A stretch of 64,000 bases of DNA from Eledone cirrhosa (Eukaryota), in assembly GCA_964016885.1 (NCBI GenBank), contig CAXHJY010000133.1, positions 1-64,000 on the forward strand. The letters are read 5' to 3'. The translations under genes were made by a program, and so were the position numbers. Positions 15,403-64,000 of this stretch are shown piece after piece; within the stretch, counting starts at the first letter, position 1; each line of letters opens with the position of its first letter. The notes below the pieces were generated by a model. That model saw only the letters and a list, made by a program, of their open reading frames with translations. It searched no databases and was not told the DNA's origin.

Positions 15403-16099
15403 AGAATGATATAGAAATGACTTCTACTGGACTAGAACTTTCATTTCAAGGAAATCGGGGCTTTCCTGATGATTTCCTTCGAATGAAATATTTCTAGTCC
15501 TGTAGAAGCTATTTCTATATTATATTTTGTATATACTCTACTAATGTATTGAGTACTTTACCCCCTCTATTGAACCCGAGACTCACTCACACACACATAA
15601 TATATATATATATATATATAATATCACCATTTAATGTCCATTTTTCTACGCTAGCATGGGTTAGACGAGTTGTCCTATTGTGGGCAATGCCAGGTCAGGT
15701 GACCATATCTTGCTTATACAGAACTGATCTTGGCTTCGCTTTAACAGCTGGAAGCCTTTCCAAACGCTAACCTCATTTACAGTGAGTACTGTTTATTTTG
15801 TATGTCGTGACCCCCACACCTTGGTCGGAGCAGTGATCGCTACTTTTCTTTCAAACTATTTTTTTTTTCTTAAATTTAATTAAAATAAATTTTATTAGAT
15901 TTAGTTTCGGATAATTCTGTTTACATAAATAGCAAATCTTTTGAAAATTTATGTAAAGTAAATATTGTATATACTTGTATATATGTCGAGAAATGTGACA
16001 AAATATTGATGGTAAAAGAGGGGGGAGGACTTGTCTTCGAGGTCAATATTTTGATTTCACCAACTTAAAAATTATATGTAAATGAGGTGCTAAAATATT

Positions 16100-16628
16100 T
16101 TCGCTTTGGAGATGAATGTTGCACCAGTTTCACTTTGGAGGTGAATATTACACCAGTTTCACTTTGGAATATTACACCAGTTTACACTTTGGAGGTGAAT
16201 ATTACACCAGTTTCACTTTGGAATATTACACCAGTTTCACTTTGGAGGTGAATATTACATCAGTTTCACTTTGGAGGTGAATATTACATCAGTTTCACTT
16301 TGGAGGTGAATATTACATCAGTTTCACTTTGGAATATTACACGAGTTTCACTTTGGACTATTACACCAGTTTCACTTTGTAGGTGAATATTGCACCAGTT
16401 TCACTTTGTAGGTGAATATTGCACCAGTTTTTCACTTTGGAGGTGAATATATTACATCAGTTTCACTTTGGAGGTGAATATATTACATCAGTTTCACTTT
16501 GGAGGTGAATATATTACACCAGTTTCACTTTGGAATATTAAAACCAGTTTCACTTTGGAGGTGAATATTGCACCAGTTTCACTTTGGTGGTGGATATATT
16601 ACACCAGTTTCACTTTGGAGGTGAAATT
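16100..16628. repeat. 29-bp (23-31 bp variants) minisatellite
   Basis: About 18-19 copies of tttcactttggaggtgaatattacaccag. Confidence 0.93.
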
Positions 16629-17280: not shown

Positions 17281-18848
17281 TAAAATAAATTACCAGTAAT
17301 ACACTGGTTAATTGCTTGACTTGTGCCAAAAGTAGAAACAATTATATTAGTTTCTATATATTTTCTATCTTGTGGAGTTATCATGTCGAGTCATTCCTAT
17401 AATTGTAAAATCTAAGAGTACTGTAAAACTTTATTTGACATCACAAATGGGTAAGTCTTACATGTTTTTCTCTTTCTCATCTCTCTTCGTCTTTCTCTAG
17501 CACATTCTCTCTCTTGTTGCTCTCATATCTCTCTCTCTCTCTCTCTTGTTTCTCTCATCACCCTCTCTTGTTTCTCTCATCTCCCTCTCTCTTGTTTCTC
17601 ATTTCCCTCTCTCTTGTTTCTCTCATTTCCCTCTCTCTTGTTTCTCTCATCTCTCTCTTGTTTCTCTCATCTCTCTCATCTCTCTCTTGTTTCTCTCATC
17701 TCTCTCATCTCTCTCATCTCTCTCATCTCTCTCATCTCTCTCTTGTTTCTCTCACCTCTCCCTCTCTCTCACCCTCATCTCTCGTTTCTCTCACCTCTCT
17801 CTCTCTCCTTTCTCTCACCTCATCTCTCTCCCCTCTCACCTCTCTCTCTCGTTTCTCTCTCACCTCTCTCTCTCATCTCTCCTCTTTGTCTCATCTCTCT
17901 TGTTTCTCTCCTCTCTCTCTCTCTCTCTCACCTCTCTTGTTTCTCACCTCTCTCTCCCTCTCATCTCTCCTCTGTACCGATACTCCCAATCCACCGGTAA
18001 ATTAATTGTTTCTACTATTGGCACAAGGCCAGAAATTAACCAGTACATTACTGGTACTTTATTTTAGTAAAATAAATTACCAGTAATACACTGGTTAATT
18101 GCTTGACTTGTGCCAAAAGTAGAAACAATTATATTAGTTTCTATATATTTTCTATCTTGTGGAGTTATCATGTCGAGTCATTCCTATAATTGTAAAATCT
18201 AAGAGTACTGTAAAACTTTATTTGACATCACAAATGGGTAAGTCTTACATGTTTTTCTCTTTCTCATCTCTCTTCGTCTTTCTCTAGCACATTCTCTCTC
18301 TTGTTGCTCTCATATCTCTCTCTCTCTCTTGTTTCTCTCATCACCCTCTCTTGTTTCTCTCATCTCCCTCTCTCTTGTTTCTCATTTCCCTCTCTCTTGT
18401 TTCTCTCATCTCCCTCTCTCTTGTTTCTCTCATCTCTCTCTTGTTTCTCTCATCTCTCTCATCTCTCTCTTGTTTCTCTCATCTCTCTCATCTCTCTCAT
18501 CTCTCTCATCTCTCTCATCTCTCTCTTGTTTCTCTCACCTCTCCCTCTCTCACCCTCATCTCTCGTTTCTCTCACCTCTCTCTCTCTCCTTTCTCTCACC
18601 TCATCTCTCTCCCCTCTCACCTCTCTCTCTCGTTTCTCTCTCACCTCTCTCTCTCTCATCTCTCCTCTTTGTCTCATCTCTCTTGTTTCTCTCCTCTCTC
18701 TCTCTCTCTCTCACCTCTCTTGTTTCTCACCTCTCTCTCCCTCTCATCTCTCCTCTGTACCGATACTCCCAATCCACCGGTAAATTAATTGTTTCTACTA
18801 TTGGCACAAGGCCAGAAATTAACCAGTACATTACTGGTACTTTATTTT
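17281..18848 (+). repeat. Near-identical ~787-bp tandem duplication containing a CT-rich low-complexity block
   Basis: 17281-18067 matches 18068-18848. Both copies begin taaaataaattaccagtaatacactgg. Confidence 0.9.
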
Positions 18849-18955
18849 ATCGCCCCCCCCCCCCCCCCCCGTAAGGATGAAAGGCAAAGTTAAACTCGGT
18901 AGTTCTAAATTATAAAATTAAATCAAATTGTTTAGAACTACAAGTCAAGTCATTC

Positions 18956-55516: not shown

Positions 55517-55867
55517 TACATGTGTGTATGTAAGTTTGTGTGTATGTATATGAGTATTTATGATTATGTATGAATGTATATGTATGTGCAAGTATATGTA
55601 TGCAGGTGTTTTTGTGTGTGTATATATATATGTCTACATGTGTGTATGTAAGTTTGCGTGTATGTATATGAGTATGTATGTATATGTATGGGTGTGTATA
55701 TGTATGGGTAAGTATGTATGTGCAAGAGTATATATGTGTATGTATGTATATATGCATGTGTTTAGGTGTGTGTGTGTATCTATGTATGTGTGTATATATA
55801 TATATATGCATGAGTATATGTTGTTGTTGTTGCTGTTGTTTAGCCCTATTTTTATTTAATAATAATA

Positions 55868-56755
55868 ATTGTTTCTTATTTAGGCACAAGGCCAGCAACT
55901 CTGAGGGAGGGAAAAGTCGATTAAATCAACACCAGTGCGTTACTGGTACTTTATTTTATTGACCCTGTAAAGATGAAAAGCAAAGTTCACCTTGGCGGAA
56001 TTTGAACTCAGAATGTAAAGGTGTGAAACTCTATGCTGCAAGGCATGTTGTCTGACACTCTACCGACACTGCCAAACCACTGTCCTAAAGCTAAAATAAC
56101 AGCAGCTATCAGACCACAGCATTTATAAACAAAATATATATGAATTAACCCTTTAGCATTTAAACCAGCTGTAACCAGCCAGAATTCTCTCACCTCTTTC
56201 TGTTCAAACTAGCCAAAACTGGCTGTTCATACTGATGTTAAGGTATTTTTCTCAAAATAAATATCAAAATGTCATAGATTTGATATTATGTGAGATAATT
56301 ATGAAAGATAAAGAAAGCCTTTACCATGAAATTACAATAGTGAATATAGAGTATTTTAACTACTAAAGAGTTAAAACGACCCCCAGTGCATGACTGGTAC
56401 TTTATTTTATCGACCCTGGCTGGATGAAATGCAAAGCTAACCTTGGCGGGATTTGAACTCAAAATGTAAAAGTACAAAACTCTATGCCGCAACGCATCTT
56501 GTCCGACGCTCTACCAATTCTGCCAACCCACTGCCCTAAAAGTAAAATAATTGCTTCTACTTTAGGCACAAGGCCAGCAATTTGAAGGCAACTGGGGAAG
56601 TCGATTAAATCTGGTACTTTATTTTATCGACCCTGTAAGGATGACAGCCAAAGCTAACTGCGGTGGGATTTGAACTCAGAATGTAAAGGTACGAAACTCT
56701 ATGCTGCAAAGCATGTTGTCCAATGCTCTACCGATTCTGTCCAATGCTCTACCGA
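55868..56755 (-). mobile_element. Cluster of three older SINE family 1 copies
   Basis: Copies at ~55868-56085, 56375-56536 and 56548-56755. Confidence 0.8.
56149..56370 (-). mobile_element. piggyBac-like MITE, single-unit diverged copy
   Basis: TTAA at 56145-56148 and 56371-56374. Reverse complement of 13941-14159 with one decayed TIR (tactaaagag). Confidence 0.78.
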
Positions 56756-57140
56756 TTAAAAGTAAAATAATAACAACAGCTACTAGAGCCTCAGAGTTTA
56801 TTATAAACAAAAAATATACGAATTAAGTTAAGTTTATTCTAAATTCAACGAAAGATTTCTGACTTTGAATCTTATCTGAAACAACTCCAGTGCTCGGGTC
56901 AAGGGTCAAGGCTTTTATTTTTAAAAACAAGATTGCAGATTTGATAAGATTCATCATCGACATTATCATCATCATCATCAACATTGTCATTGTCATCATC
57001 ATCATCATCATCATCAACATTATCATTGTCATCGTCATGATCATCATCATCGTTAATTTAACTTGTGGTAGGAGGGTTCGCTATCTGGGTGGTTGTCTGT
57101 TCCTACGAATGCTGTGGTTTCACCCTTTAGCATTTACATT

Positions 57141-57856
57141 ACTCTATATATACTATTGTATTTTCACAGTAAACGCTTTATTTCACATAATATCTCACAT
57201 AACATTTACATTACTCTATATATACTATTGTATTTTCACAGTAAAGACTTTATCTTACATAATATCTCACATAACATTTACATTACTCTATATATACTAT
57301 TGTATTTTCACAGTAAAGACTTTACCTCACATAATATCTCACATATCATTTACATTACTTTATATATACTATTGTATTTTTACAGTAAAGGTTTTATCTT
57401 ACATAATTATCTCACATAACATTTACATTACTCTATATATACTATTGTATTTTCACAGTAAAGGCTTTATTTCACATAATATCTCACATAACATTTACAT
57501 TACTCTATATATACTATTGTATTTTCACATTAAACACTATATTTCACATAATATCTCACATAACATTTACATTACTCTATATATACTATTGTATTTTCAC
57601 TGTAAATGCTTTATTTCACATAATTATCTCACATAACATTTACATTACTCTATATATACTATTGTATTTTCACAGTAAAGACTTTATCTTACATAATATC
57701 TCACATAACATTTACATTACTCTATATATACTATTGTATTTTCACTGTAAAAGCTTTATTTCACATAATTATCTCACATAACATTTACATTACTCTATAT
57801 ATACTATTGTATTTTCACAGTAAACGCTTTACCTCACATAATATCTCACATAACAT
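57141..57856 (+). repeat. 72-bp tandem array, 10 units left of the LINE
   Basis: Unit starts (actctatata) at 57141, 57213, 57285, 57357, 57430, 57502, 57574, 57647, 57719 and 57792. Confidence 0.95.
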
Positions 57857-58065
57857 CTCGTATACGAGAGATGTGTGTTGACGTGTGTGAACAAGCTCGG
57901 ATACCGAGTCGGATTTACTTACTCAAAAGTGAGTTTTGATTAATTTTTTATACTGTAATATACGTTAACCCCTTGCCTTGGTCGTCAAACTTTGAGTTTA
58001 TTTATTTTCGCCCCCTTTTGGGGCGAATTTTCCAGTTAAAAATTTATTACGGCAAACTAATAGAA

Positions 58066-59788
58066 ATGGACGGAATTTTCACATCTCATCCTAACGTGAA
58101 AGCCACGCCCCCTAAGAAAGGTGATACAGAGAAGCTAGAAGCACAAGGCTCTAAGTCTTCCCTCCTCACTTCTGCAAAAGAAACATGGAACACAGAATTA
58201 AAAGAAAAATTTGTAAAAATGGGTGAAAACCCAGAAAGTCACATAAACGCAGACAAAAACAACAATGACAATAACAGCAATAGTCACAACACCAACCAAG
58301 GAAAAAATAACGATAACACCAAACAAAGCGAACCCACTACTGGTGCCTCCTTTGCACAGGCGGTCCGGAAAACACAAACCTGCAAGCAACTGGACATTAC
58401 AACTCTGAGAGAAAAGATGAAGGAAGCGAAACAGTATGTAACTTTCAAAGAAGGAGGAGACTTCACAATCACCTCCCCACAAGAAATCAAAAGAGACACG
58501 ACGCTAAGAACGATATCTTTCAGAACAATTTCCAACATAACAAGGAAACCAGCTCAATTATCCCAAAAAGAGATTGAGCTGGTCCTAAAAAATGTGTGGA
58601 GTGATATATCGTTCATACAAAAAGGGCCACTCTATGGGAATATAACGGTCCTAATGAAGGATCAATTGACGGCCAGGAAATACTCTGTGGCGCCAATTGT
58701 TTCCAAGCTACATACATTTTTCCCCACATATTTAGGGAAAAGAACGCAGAAAATAAGGGTCTCCGGAATCCGGCCAAATGCATGCATTTCCTGGGTACTA
58801 ACAGGATTTTTAGAAGACGAGGACAGAATCCTCTCAGTAGGAGAAGTCACCACAGACGTTTTCGGCGTTTTGTGCGTGGAGGTTCTGGTCCAAATGAGAC
58901 CAGAACGAATAGCTAGAATACCACAGAGGGTGTCCCTCGATGGAGAAACATTTATATACATTTCAGCCGAGGGTAGGAGGCCCATATGTTACTACTGTTC
59001 AAGCAGGGGTCATCTAAGGGCTGCTTGTCCTCAATTGACAAAAAAAAAGGCTCTTTTACCTACACCCCACACACCACCACCGCCACCACCACCACCTCCA
59101 CCACCACCACCACAACAACAACAAAAACAACACGGAAAAATAACACAAGACACGGCCCCACCCAAAACAACTCCCAAAACACACACAAATACAACAAAAC
59201 CCCAAAATACACCACTACCCGACAGCACGGACGAGGACCCAGCTGAAACGGCACCTAGTGACGAAGAGGGGGAACCCTTCCAACCTGTAAAAAGGAAAAA
59301 AAGAAAGCACCACTCGAACATAAACGAAACAAACACACAACCACCAACAAAAACAAAACAAACAGAACAAACAAAATCCGCCCCACCCCAAAACATAACA
59401 CATACAACAAAACGTAAGCATACACAAGAACAACAAACAAACACAACACAAATAAAACAGTATACATACATTAACACAAATAACAAAGAACTAGTAAAAA
59501 CAATACACGGTGGAAACTGAAGGGCAATTCTTTGCAAGCGCGGCCAACAAACTGCATTTAAAAATGATAAGACTCCCAATGGACACCTATGCAAAACTAA
59601 GAGAGAACTTTCCTGAGGACATGGGGAAAACATGTACTCAACCCTATAACCGCGTCCTCTTGAAACGTTTCCCCACCCACACCTCACCAAACACCCCCAC
59701 TCCACCACAGAACAACACCCCACCAAACAACCCCTCCAATACGCCCATGGATATTGTGCAACCTGCTCTTCAGGAGCCGAACAGGTAG
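58066..59788 (+). pseudogene. LINE ORF1 (gag-like, CCHC zinc knuckle); main frame ends 59520, probable frameshifted C-terminus to 59788
   Basis: SFAQAV motif, CYYCSSRGHLRAAC (CX2CX4HX4C), basic FQPVKRKKRK segment. First ATG at 58066. The overlapping frame 59510-59788 ends 21 bp before ORF2. Confidence 0.8.
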
Positions 59789-59809
59789 GTCCTTCCTCTT
59801 TTAACCAAC

Positions 59810-62800
59810 ATGGCTGATATAAGAGTTGGGTGTCTGAATGTACGCGGCCTGGGACTGTCTTGGAAACAAGGCAAACTTTTAAACGATCTCAGGTCGCATA
59901 GAATGGATGTAATGGCTATTTGCGAGTCCAGGATCAGCAGCGAGCACCAACTGGCGCCCCTCTTCGACGACTTTGAGATCTTCGCATCTCTCTGTCAACC
60001 GGGGGGTGGAGGTGGAGTTGTCGTTCTGCTGCGAAAACACCTGGGCCTCGCCATACAGAAGGTGCACCTGGACCCGGAGGGTCGACTGGTGGTTTTAGAC
60101 GTCGGCAGTTGTGAAAGTGGAGCCCTTAGACTAATAGCTGTGTACGCCCCTTTTTGGGCAGCGCGGCGGAATACTTCCAACGTCTGGAAACTTTTCTGGG
60201 AACGTCCCGCTCCTTGCTTTTAGTGGGGGACTGGAATGGTATCCTGGATGCACGTTGGGACTATGTAGGGGCATGTGCCAATAGAGGGTGGTGTAAAAGC
60301 CTCAAAAGGTTAATCGGCCGATTTGACCTGGCCGATAGATATCGACTAGATTTTCCGACTGTACCACTATGGACGTGGACCAATCGCAGCGGAACATCTA
60401 GGTCGTACCTAGATAGGGTCCTAGTTAGAGAGAAGGATAGGGACACATTTAGCTGTCCAAAAATGTTCATGGTTGACTATTCGGATCACAAGTTAGTGAC
60501 CTGCATAGCCAACCTTGATAGAACCCATAGACAGGGACCCGGTTACTGGAAGCTGAACTTGTCCTTACCGAGAAGCAAAGCTTACAGTAAACGGATTAGC
60601 ACGTTAGTTAAGCAGAGTTTGACAGGGGCAATTGTCAACAACAGGTGGTGGAGCTCTCTTAAGAGAGCAATTAGAATAGAATCGATAGGTTTTAGTCAGG
60701 AATTAGCAAGGGATAGGAACAAGACGGAAAGGGAATTAGTAGATAGAGTAGAAGAGGCGATTAGGAGTGGCAATGTAGCCGGCGTGCTGGCATCAAGAAT
60801 GGCCTTAGACCAGTTCTTTGAGGTGAAGCATGAAGGCTGCGTTGTCAGGAGTAAAATACGTGCTCTGGGTAATGAGGGAGCCAAAGCTGTGAGCTGGGCC
60901 CGAGTGACAGAGGCAAAAAGTGGGAACAAGTCCACAATTCGGTCTTTGAAGGACCAGGATGGGCGTGTGATCCTTGAACCTGGGCAGATGTGTGCGGCCT
61001 TTCAGCGGCACTTTGCACGACTGTTCGAGAGGGGCAGCGCGCCGGGTGAGACTATGGATTTCAATCCATACCTCGACGGTCTGCCGCGCCTCTCGGATGC
61101 GGAGGCGAAGTCCTGCGAAAGGACGATTTCAGGTGCTGAGATAGGGGCGGCAAACGCAAATCCCCGGGTCTCGATGGTCTACCATACGAGCTATATGTAG
61201 CGATGCCGGACTTGTTCTCCGATATCCTCGAAACGGTCTACTGCAACTGGCAGCAGAACGGGAGAATTCCCAGTTCTGTGACCAAGGGCGTAGTTACGCT
61301 GGTGAGGAAGGATGAGAACAAGGGGGATGACATAAGTAACTTCAGGCCCATAACTCTGCTAAATACAGAGTTAAAGATTTTGGCCAAGGTGTTAGCGAAA
61401 AGGTTGGCGCTTGTCGTTGGAAACCTGGTGGGAGAAGCGCAGACATGCGCAATCCCGTCCAGGTCCATTCACGACAATCTCCACCTTATGCGATACATCA
61501 TAGAGAGGGTAGGGAATGAACCCGGCTTTGGTGGGGCCCTGATCAACTTGGATCAATCTAAAGCTTTCGATAGGGTTGACCATCGTTACCTGGATGCGGT
61601 GCTCGCGGCAGCAGGCTTCGGACCTGTTTTCAGGGGTTGGATTGCTGCGATGCACAGCAGCAACGTCTGCTCAAGGGTCAAGGTGAACGGCCACCTCTCG
61701 GAGCCGTTCCAAATCATGCGATCCATCCGACAGAGATGCCCTCTCTCCTCCCTACTGTATGTGCTGGCTCTTGAGCCACTACTGCGGAAGTTGGAGCGGT
61801 TGCAGGGCATCCCTTTGGAACCGGGATTGCAGAAAGCGGCGTCGGCCTACGCCGATGACGTGACAGTAATGGTGTCGAAAACCTCGCAAATCGGCACCTT
61901 ACTGGAGGAATATGAAAGGTTTACAGGAGCCAAGCTGAACCGGGACAAGTCCGTCGGTTTGCAACTCGGAACATGGAGAGGCAAACCGATGCCCTCCAAC
62001 GACGTCGTCGGACGCTGGACGGAGGGCCCGGTGAAGCTGCTTGGGGTCTGGTTCGGACCAGACCTCCAGGTGGAGAAAAACTGGAACGAGGTAATGGCCA
62101 GGGTGTTTGCACTCACCCAGAAGTGGGCCCAGTGCAAACTATCCCTGAAAGGTCGAGCGGAGGTGGCGAATACTTATATAGCATCCGTCATCTACTACCG
62201 CTTGACCGTCGTGCCATGCCCAGTGAAAAGACTCGCCAAAATGGAGTGCGCGCTGTTCCAATTTCTTTGGAACAAGCGGACCCCTTTGGTGAGGAGATCC
62301 ATCTGCTGTCAACACCCTTCGAAAGGAGGGCTGGGGATGCCGTGGCTACAGATGCGTAAACACGCATTAAGGCTACGGCACCTCCAGGTATTCCTCACCG
62401 GTCAACCGGTGTGGACCCCGTTTGTGAGGCGAGCCTTCCCCAGACTCGTCTCGCTCACCGAGCTGCAATCCTGGGTCAAGCAAAGACCGAGAAAAGTGGG
62501 CGACTGGCACATTGAATGTGCCCAGGCGCTCACGGCCCTCTGGAAAGCGGACCCGGCAATCAGTGGAGACTCCACCTCGACATTCTATAGAGGGTTGGTA
62601 CGCAGCAGGTGCGACGATGCTCTCGGAGAAGCTCTAGGCATGGAGGAAGATGAACTGGCCAGTCTGTTCGGTAGGACGTTTGGCCCTGGACCGATGGACA
62701 ACTTCCAAAAGTCCCTGGCTTGGCAGTGCTACCGAGGGGCTCTACCCGTTCGAGACAAGCTCCACAGGCATGGGAGCCTGGGTAGAGATCCTTTGAATAA

Positions 62801-63221
62801 GATCTGTCCGAGATGCGTGCATGATGACGAAACCGTTGCGCACGCATTCGTACACTGCCCAGGCATTGCTGACCTGTGGGGCTATGTGGAACGACTACTG
62901 TCGAGGGTGGGACCAATCCGGTTGACCACCGAGTCCATTGTCACGATCAAACCGCCTCCCCCTTTCAAAAACGAAGGAGAGGCGGTTTTTCTCTGTGTGA
63001 TAGCCATGGCTAAAGAAGTTGTATGGTGGACGAGGCTGAAAGGGCTGAGGTCAGACACCTTTCTCTCCGGCCAACAACTGGTCCCCTTTTTCAAATACCA
63101 TTTTAAAAGAAGGATCAGAATGGAGAGAGAGGTGCTCTACCCCAGCAAGTTTTATGAAAGGTGGGTGAAAGTAGGGAGAATGGCCAGAGTGAATGGGTCT
63201 TCTCTCTATATCAGCCTGTAG
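59810..63221 (+). pseudogene. LINE ORF2: APE endonuclease, reverse transcriptase and C-terminal zinc motif; frameshifts near 60150 and 61150
   Basis: GCLNVRGL, VYAP, GDWN, SYLDR, SDH, GYWKLN, KSPGLDGLPYELY (frame of 61203), FRPITLLNTELKILAK, DQSKAFDRVDH, RQRCPLS, YADD, CPRC...ETVAHAFVHC. Confidence 0.93.
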
Positions 63222-63458
63222 GTGAAAGAAGAGGAAAAAGAGGAGACGAGGGAAGCACCTACTCTTTGTGTTCCTGAGGAGAAGGGTTGCACATTTTTTC
63301 CGGGGTGTGTGCGACCCATGTTAATGCCCCCTCCCTATTGAGGACTTCGTTTGTTGTTGTTATTTCATTGTTATATTTTTGTACTCGTTAATTATATGTA
63401 AACTTCCCCCCTTGTATCTGTCCCTACCTTTTGTGCCCTAGTGGCAAATAAAGAAACC

Positions 63459-63599
63459 ACTCTATATATATACTATTGTATTTTCACAGTAAACGCTTTA
63501 TTTTACATAATATCTCACATAACATTTACATTACTCTATATATACTATTGTATTTTCACAGTAAAGGCTTTATTTCACATAATTATCTCACATAACATT
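63459..63599 (+). repeat. 72-bp tandem array, 2 units right of the LINE
   Basis: Unit starts at 63459 and 63533. Confidence 0.93.
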
Positions 63600-63747
63600 G
63601 AATCTATGAGATTTTGATATTATTTATTTTTAAAACAATACCTTAACATCAGTATGAGTGACCAGTTACGGCTGGTTTTAACAGAAAGATGTGAGAGAAT
63701 TCTGGCCGGATATGGTTGGTTTAAATGCTAAAGGGTTAATACCATCT

Positions 63748-64000
63748 ATCATTTGTCACCATACTCATCATCATCCTCATCTCCATCATCATCATTATTA
63801 TCCCCGTCGTCATTATCACCATCGTCGGCATGTCATCATCATCATCATCACCATCATCATCAATTATCATCATTAGCACATCATTGTCATCAGCATTATC
63901 ATTGTCAATTTCGTCATCATCATCATCATCATCACTAACATTGTCATCATCATCACTATCATGATCTTTATCATCATAAGCATTATCGTTGTCATAATCC
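63748..64000. repeat. Imperfect (CAT)n tract
   Basis: (ATC)n-rich. A similar tract lies left of the composite at 56950-57052. Confidence 0.9.

Follow-up and report, generated by a model that had tools for sequence, protein, structure and literature searches.

Background

In Xenopus, the target site of the long interspersed nuclear elements (LINEs) Tx1L and Tx2L lies in the internal tandem repeats of the DNA transposons Tx1D and Tx2D, with a repeat unit of about 400 bp and, for Tx1L, a target-site duplication (TSD) of 23 bp. A similar nest was analysed in the window, which here means the whole stretch of 64,000 nucleotides from Eledone cirrhosa (contig CAXHJY010000133.1, positions 1 to 64,000), where a Tx1-like LINE interrupts the tandem array of a piggyBac-like miniature inverted-repeat transposable element (MITE); the unit here is 72 bp long and 7 bp of it are lost. 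Like the window LINE, the Tx1-type LINE Tx1L of Xenopus laevis occupies a fixed site in a non-autonomous piggyBac-type transposon, Tx1D, and Tx2L does so in Tx2D (PMC4494074, PMC6719617, PMC1950540).

A preference of the Tx1 clade for DNA transposons as targets is established, target choice is set mainly by the endonuclease, and truncation of the site occurs as well as duplication (PMC4494074). The Tx1L endonuclease nicks its own site almost exclusively, and a hairpin loop of the enzyme helps to read the target (PMC1950540); this loop has 9 residues in the window LINE and 11 in Tx1L. Crocodilian Tx1 families target other transposons, namely Tx1-Mar (Mariner-N4_AMi), Tx1-9_AMi (Harbinger), and Tx1-8_Crp and Tx1-4_AMi (long terminal repeat elements) (PMC4494074). 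They share the preference for transposon targets but differ from the window LINE in their host superfamilies, in being old elements, and in their vertebrate hosts, and the available text describes no internal tandem array for them. The piggyBac/TTAA MITEs of corals (CMITEs) and the Xenopus MITEs with internal tandem repeats share with the MITE of the window the TTAA site, a terminal inverted repeat (TIR) of 12-19 bp with a CC[C/T]T start, and tandem arrays, whereas no resident target-specific LINE is described for them in the portion of the source at hand (PMC2872659).

For Octopus vulgaris, 13 recently active L1-Tx1 families with 421 insertions and 6 piggyBac families are reported (PMC13282606); division of these published figures gives about 5.4 kb for each L1-Tx1 insertion, and the window LINE family may be among these families. 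Tx1 occurs once in the main text (a table row) and once in the supplement of that paper, as available, with no target site or nesting. The accessible portions of PMC8967140 and PMC11203168 count L1-Tx1 families and do not give targets. No published target-specific cephalopod Tx1 was found in the literature covered, outside of which most subscription papers fell, and a Repbase or Dfam entry is possible.

Structure of the composite element

The first-pass annotation had described a TTAA MITE in the order left end, array, LINE, array, right end. The nesting was confirmed, since both TIRs, the 10 + 2 units, the LINE, and the right TTAA were all found (Table 1), while the left site turned out to be TTCA. 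The TIR sequence is CCCTTTAGCATTTA, and the left and right copies matched at 14 of 14 positions. The 72-bp array upstream of the LINE was detected by TRF with 10.0 copies, 92% matches, and a score of 1236. The LINE insert is 5,602 bp long and interrupts an array of 12 units, 10 on its 5' side and 2 on its 3' side. An empty unit reads CACATAACAT-TTACATT-ACTCTATA, and in the occupied unit the 7 bp TTACATT are replaced by the insert. As in Xenopus, a non-autonomous TTAA transposon carries the LINE at one fixed position of its internal tandem repeat. No short TSD was found in either flank of the window copy; the Tx1L/Tx1D system has one, and the window copy has a 7-bp loss. There is no poly(A) at the 3' end of the LINE, where only 6 bases separate AATAAA at 63447 from the unit. 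Comparison with contigs showed that the right flank contains an extra TA private to the window copy. (CAT)n-rich tracts border the composite on both sides (56951-57051 and 63760-64000), so it has likely split a microsatellite region.

Junctions in other copies

Eighteen sequencing runs from 10 studies were listed, and 14 of them contain part of the stretch. Four of the 18 were aligned to positions 57785-63780 at 88% likeness. Three of these consist of contigs, namely X2 (organism A), X5 (organism B), and X7 (organism D), and the fourth, X16, consists of raw restriction-site-associated DNA (RAD) reads of organism A.

It had been predicted that other copies of the LINE would be flanked by ...CACATAACAT on the 5' side and by ACTCTATATATAC... 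on the 3' side. This was borne out directly in organism B. Record 9 of X5 lies wholly within 57827-58427 and carries 4 differences, all inside the LINE, so the 30 bases of unit flank are exact; because 30 bases is the overlap expected where a contig enters a repeat, the flank likely continues as unit. Record 16 of X5 lies wholly within 63143-63482 and crosses the 3' join. For organisms A and D, contig ends and depths argue for the same flanks, with the 5' side of organism D not observed. A single X2 contig carries all the depth (1,883.5) at 57872 and 57901, and from the distances to its ends (43 and 41, with X5 as calibration) it should span about 57830-57941, starting 27 bases inside the unit. 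An unrelated flank is unlikely here, because unrelated flanks would make the contig start at 57857. The 3-base shift between the X2 and X5 contigs could be due to a variant of the unit in which CATCT comes next, as at the X7 joint from 57858 to 63518.

On the 3' side, the extra TA of the window appears as a 2-base gap at 63463 in the other copies. The gap was present in 5 X2 contigs (summed depth 5,693, in which overlapping contigs are possibly double-counted, against 2,696 in the 3' untranslated region (UTR) contig), in X5 (depth 12.2/12.2), in 1 X7 contig (245 against 324 at 63387), and in 4 raw X16 reads with 3 starts. Since such a gap requires letters on both sides of the join, the 3' join is common to three organisms. 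Generic (TA)n flanks, which would have spoken against specificity, were not seen, as the LINE is followed in other copies by ACTC, four TA, and then the remaining unit sequence. No loose end was found at 57857 or 63458 among the 24 of 5,668 rows listed. More than 20% of flanks of one kind is the threshold proposed for target preference (PMC4494074). It was exceeded in terms of depth, not of counted loci, the junction contigs carrying approximately the whole family depth at both ends in X2 and X5 and at the 3' end in X7. We infer that most copies in organism A share both joins.

Mode of insertion and alternative explanations

Results are probably best explained by site-specific retrotransposition into the MITE unit, in which the apurinic/apyrimidinic-type endonuclease (APE) nicks TTACATT/ACTC, the RNA is copied by target-primed reverse transcription, and the other cut falls 7 bases upstream. 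A site-specific APE nick is the likeliest cause in view of the established biology of Tx1 elements (PMC4494074). The LINE's own endonuclease, likely specific for one fixed site in the 72-bp unit, would nick the bottom strand at the TTACATT/ACTC boundary; the reverse transcriptase (RT) would copy the RNA from this nick without a poly(A) tail, and a top-strand cut 7 bases upstream would lead to the loss of TTACATT. The RNA would start in the upstream unit, which is the simplest account because the 5' join is very uniform, and its leader piece would anneal to the target. The MITE itself would owe its spread to a piggyBac transposase that was not seen and its length to slippage of units, giving a growing stock of redundant sites. 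We infer the nick positions, the independent insertion, and the copy number. A 7-bp truncation is preferred to a 65-bp TSD as the outcome of insertion, because the latter needs 3 substitutions and one slip between its two copies (P ~0.06 for the substitutions at the age of the copy). A wider scheme, in which a cephalopod LINE lineage independently evolved the full two-tier cycle, with the upstream 72-bp unit serving as a promoter or RNA leader that is rewritten at each insertion, and in which the composite also moves by transposase between TTAA sites, so that RNA and DNA routes are combined, is doubtful at present.

Several points weigh against site-specific retrotransposition. The extent of the 5'-end contig of X2 was derived from distances, its flank letters not being displayed, and organism D, which has the same 3' join, had nothing aligned at 57872-57901, so that its 5' join was not observed. 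No joint from the unit into the interior of the LINE, as expected of a 5'-truncated copy at the site, was found among the 15 of 1,183 joints listed, and mostly full-length copies with identical joins are also compatible with copying of the whole composite. Six differences in open reading frame (ORF) 1 that are peculiar to organism D comprised 5 non-synonymous and 1 synonymous, with no sign of purifying selection in these few, preselected rows. The rows read were the top 40 of 1,334 substitutions, 12 of 35 indels, 15 of 1,183 joints, 24 of 5,668 loose ends, and 24 of 166,598 pieces. Variants that are rare drop out of contigs, and a contig ends some 30 bases after entering a repeat, which makes minority flanks and the number of distinct loci invisible, and depth is a rough measure of copy number only, X5 possibly containing just one to three copies.

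The copying of whole composites would mean that there were only one or a few LINE insertions and that the 6.6-kb MITE-LINE composite was then multiplied by a piggyBac transposase. Most copies do appear full length, since the 5' depth reaches about 70-85% of the 3' depth in X2 and the profile of X5 is flat. In addition, 27-30 bases before the LINE appear constant in the window, in X5, and probably in X2, and both TIRs are intact. Yet the depth in X2 climbs mildly from 1,884 at the 5' end to 2,696 at the 3' end, as 5' truncation would give, and 5'-truncated copies at one site are the standard test against such hitchhiking, which was examined and rejected in the crocodilian precedent (PMC4494074). 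The upstream unit variant is also frequent among empty MITEs in the loose-end consensus, and the left site of the window composite is TTCA. The diverged family of organism D has the same 3' join with nothing aligned at the start of the 5' end, and the family-level indels listed for it (59797 and 63387) both fall outside the ORFs. Multiplication by a transposase is considered unlikely.

Site-specific retrotransposition was also weighed against two further accounts. If many copies lay in LINE-unit-LINE tandem arrays or in segmental duplications derived from a single composite, a few insertion events could yield a high junction depth; the number of loci is not visible in contigs, and head-to-tail Tx1-driven insertions around a TSD are described (PMC4494074). 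Such local amplification is nevertheless very improbable, as the window copy is solitary and 0.7% diverged, the 3' join is common to three organisms, and the host MITE is scattered, its outer flanks being unrelated in 410-609 contigs; a tandem insertion would itself imply target specificity. It is hardly credible that a LINE without specificity, or with a preference for (TA)n, landed a single time in the MITE by chance, even though the MITE is abundant (3 copies and 14 units per 64 kb) and AT-rich (23% GC) and a short TA run adjoins the 3' join, because the X2 junction contig carries nearly all of the family depth and other copies continue with ACTC, four TA, and the remainder of the unit rather than a long TA run.

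Coding content and state of the LINE

Table 1. Features of the composite element and related MITE copies in the window.
Feature	Position	Strand	Basis
Left target site of the MITE, TTCA (degenerate TTAA)	57119..57122	+	sequence
Left 14-bp TIR, CCCT start, overlapping the first array unit	57123..57136	+	14/14 complementary to right TIR
Ten internal 72/73-bp MITE units, the last cut after CACATAACAT	57131..57856	+	repeat analysis (TRF), sequence
Tx1-like non-LTR retrotransposon, full length, inactive copy	57857..63458	+	domains, contig alignment
5' UTR, opening with a 12-bp palindrome (57857-57868)	57857..58065	+	sequence
ORF1, CCHC knuckle near residues 307-323, Pro/Thr-rich tail; broken near 59507	58066..59788	+	ORFs, domains, 11 extra bases at 59507 in organisms A and B
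ORF2: APE endonuclease, RT, C-terminal zinc finger (zf-RVT); frameshifts near 60166 and 61150	59810..63221	+	ORFs, domains, contig alignment
3' UTR with AATAAA at 63447-63452, without poly(A) tail	63222..63458	+	sequence
Two further MITE units, the first beginning ACTC, 7 bp short, with private extra TA	63459..63598	+	sequence, contig alignment
Unique right part of the MITE, 123 bp	63599..63721	+	83-84% to copies at 13941 and 56149
Right 14-bp TIR of the MITE	63722..63735	-	TIR match
Right target site TTAA	63736..63739	+	sequence
LINE-free single-unit MITE, same family, TTAA both sides	13941..14159	+	84% identical over 226 columns
Older LINE-free single-unit MITE, TTAA both sides, left TIR decayed	56149..56370	-	83% to the right part of the composite

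The zf-CCHC match of ORF1 was weak (E 0.006, below the Pfam cut-off), and Atlas neighbours of ORF1 at 0.90-0.92 carry zf-CCHC, one cluster also ZCCHC3-type RNA-binding domains; together, the weak match and the neighbours agree with the ORF1 of the Tx1 clade, which has RNA-binding domains and a CCHC knuckle. The domains of ORF2 are spread over three frames, with Exo_endo_phos on both endonuclease pieces, RVT_1 (1.6e-23), and zf-RVT (1.5e-6). The order of N-terminal APE, RT, and C-terminal zinc finger is that of Tx1-type elements, and the N, E, GDxN, YLD, and SDH motifs are present.

The window LINE carries three frame-breaking deletions, one in ORF1 and two in ORF2 (Table 1), and in view of these three frameshifts it is a dead member of its family. 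One extra base at 60166 was found in X2, X5, and 22 of 22 X16 reads, and the breaks at 59507 and 60166 were absent from other copies. Because the deletion near 59507 breaks the frame, ORF1 likely extended originally to its tabulated end. Changes in ORF1 private to the window comprised 6 non-synonymous and 2 synonymous, as for neutral decay of a dead copy, while mixed rows in ORF2 comprised 11 synonymous and 12 non-synonymous, both counts coming from few, preselected rows.

An Rfam search of the LINE 5' end gave no convincing match, and 3 weak snoRNA matches in the microsatellite flanks were taken as chance. A descriptor of a hepatitis delta virus-like ribozyme, of uncertain power, gave 0 matches at the 5' end and also 0 in 50 shuffles, and a ribozyme is not supported. 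A hairpin spanning the upstream unit and the LINE 5' end (-18.6 kcal/mol, z -2.0, 7 of 200 shuffles, 1 of 6 stretches folded) was not relied on, because the letter of other copies at 57872 breaks one pair. The runs listed included no RNA data and thus offer no evidence on LINE expression either way.

Phylogenetic relationships and significance

The ORF2 product scored 219 bits with Xenopus Tx1L ORF2 (P14381), 127 bits with human L1 ORF2p, and 74 bits with R2, the last two being the nearest solved structures. The RT showed 35% identity to that of Tx1L, and the closest named relatives were from Argonauta hians (63%) and Acanthosepion pharaonis (53%), which by themselves point to an octopod as the likely host. 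Sibling families of the LINE share 63-78% protein identity. In a tree of 28 rows, the window RT fell into an 8-row lineage (100/100) with the Argonauta and Acanthosepion proteins, and Tx1L fell into a separate 6-row group (99/99); common descent with the Tx1L subclade was thus not recovered. A 23-row group holding both Tx1L and the window RT stood apart from the fungal L1-like set with a support of 89/87 and was internally unresolved. The 28 rows were chosen from an earlier quick tree of 48 rows (one row omitted for short coverage), long branches such as plant L1 and Periplaneta being dropped, and the tree was built without mammalian L1 and the named Keno, Kibi, Koshi, and Dewa rows.

As regards the expected placement of the RT within L1/Tx1, the scores lie closer to Tx1L than to L1 or R2, and the RT lies outside the Tx1L subclade, in a separate cephalopod lineage that agrees with an independent origin. 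Judged by its protein sequence, the window LINE is likely a member of the Tx1 clade; it appears to work in the manner of Tx1L/Tx1D and is placed outside the Tx1L subclade. Because of this separate lineage (100/100), its likeness to Xenopus Tx1L/Tx1D is probably convergent. Tx1 elements that target DNA transposons are already known, and the window LINE is probably a convergent invertebrate case.

If the site-specific reading is true, transposon-targeting Tx1 elements extend from vertebrates to a mollusc and to a separate RT lineage, the niche formed by the internal repeats of a non-autonomous TTAA transposon was found twice, and site-directed retrotransposon research gains an APE endonuclease of new specificity, whose target is short, defined, and AT-rich. 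In contrast to the old crocodilian cases, the divergence of this family is low (0.7%) and its copies likely number 150-250, and this youth and copy number make the question of insertion versus hitchhiking decidable in existing long-read octopus assemblies.

Pattern searches of other collections gave no confirmed match: the pattern of the LINE 3' end had 0 matches in metagenome contigs, the 72-bp unit pattern had 0 in bacterial genomes and 0 in viral contigs, and a search with a 7-row RT alignment in three collections gave 181, 35, and 21 pattern matches, with 0 confirmed. Protein P0126, a relative with 63% identity on a 1.8-kb contig, is labelled as a protein of a Herbaspirillum metagenome-assembled genome, a bacterial assembly into which host DNA has likely strayed.

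Copy number and age

Family-specific interior contigs of X2 had depths of 1,507-2,696 compared with about 10-12 for contigs of single tandem-MITE loci, so organism A likely carries some 150-250 LINE copies, a rough number based on depth. The corresponding number for X7 was about 14-20, equally rough. The window LINE differed from five X5 contigs at 18 of 2,649 letters (0.7%), and the LINE family is young and multi-copy.

At 63406 (window about 63400-63440), depth rose to 131,885 in X2 and 18,450 in X7, compared with 2,696 and 324, respectively, at 63387; this jump points to a 3' UTR motif common to far more abundant sibling LINEs or to a short interspersed nuclear element (SINE) that may use the LINE machinery. 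In X16, 36,960 RAD molecules start and finish inside ORF1 (58781-59036), and this multi-copy LINE would be taken for one very deep RAD locus.

Host MITE family

The TIR of 14 bp with a CCCT start agrees with the hallmark of piggyBac/TTAA MITEs, a TIR of 12-19 bp beginning CC[C/T]T (PMC2872659). The LINE-free single-unit MITEs that the first-pass annotation had placed at 13941 and 56149 were verified as relatives with TTAA flanks. Two of the three MITE copies in the window have TTAA on both sides, and the composite has TTCA/TTAA. In the loose-end consensus, TTAA precedes the left TIR in 410 contigs of X2 and 609 contigs of X7, and the MITE is dispersed, with 410-609 contigs leaving each TIR into unrelated AT-rich flanks. 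Among window ORFs of at least 150 codons, no long coding frame other than those of the LINE stood out.

Head-to-tail MITE dimers with one common TTAA (63739 joined to 63520/63523) were present in 28 contigs of X2 and 39 of X7 and resemble those described for coral CMITEs. In Table 1 of PMC13282606, as available, the piggyBac coverage of 3,666,023 bp exceeds the TIR subtotal, while 366,023 fits by hand sum; the latter value gives about 770 bp per recent piggyBac insertion, the size of a multi-unit MITE like the host of the composite. Positions 55861-56830 hold three related tandem segments (74% and 83% to the first). The MITE at 56149 links the TTAA that ends the first segment to a TTAA within the repeat of the second segment, which is without its first ~70 bases, possibly because two MITEs recombined or because the sequence from one TTAA site to another was deleted.

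Other repeats in the window

An abundant SINE-like dispersed repeat, with copies 73-83% alike, was found at 55932-56100 and in over a dozen other places (for example 9683, 11427, 22119, 23694, 26388, 33924, 40607, 49769, and 52000). A minisatellite at 16099-16625 consists of 29-bp units (18.6 copies, 85% matches), and positions 17439-18871 contain two similar tandem TC-rich low-complexity blocks (17505-17973 and 18255-18756).

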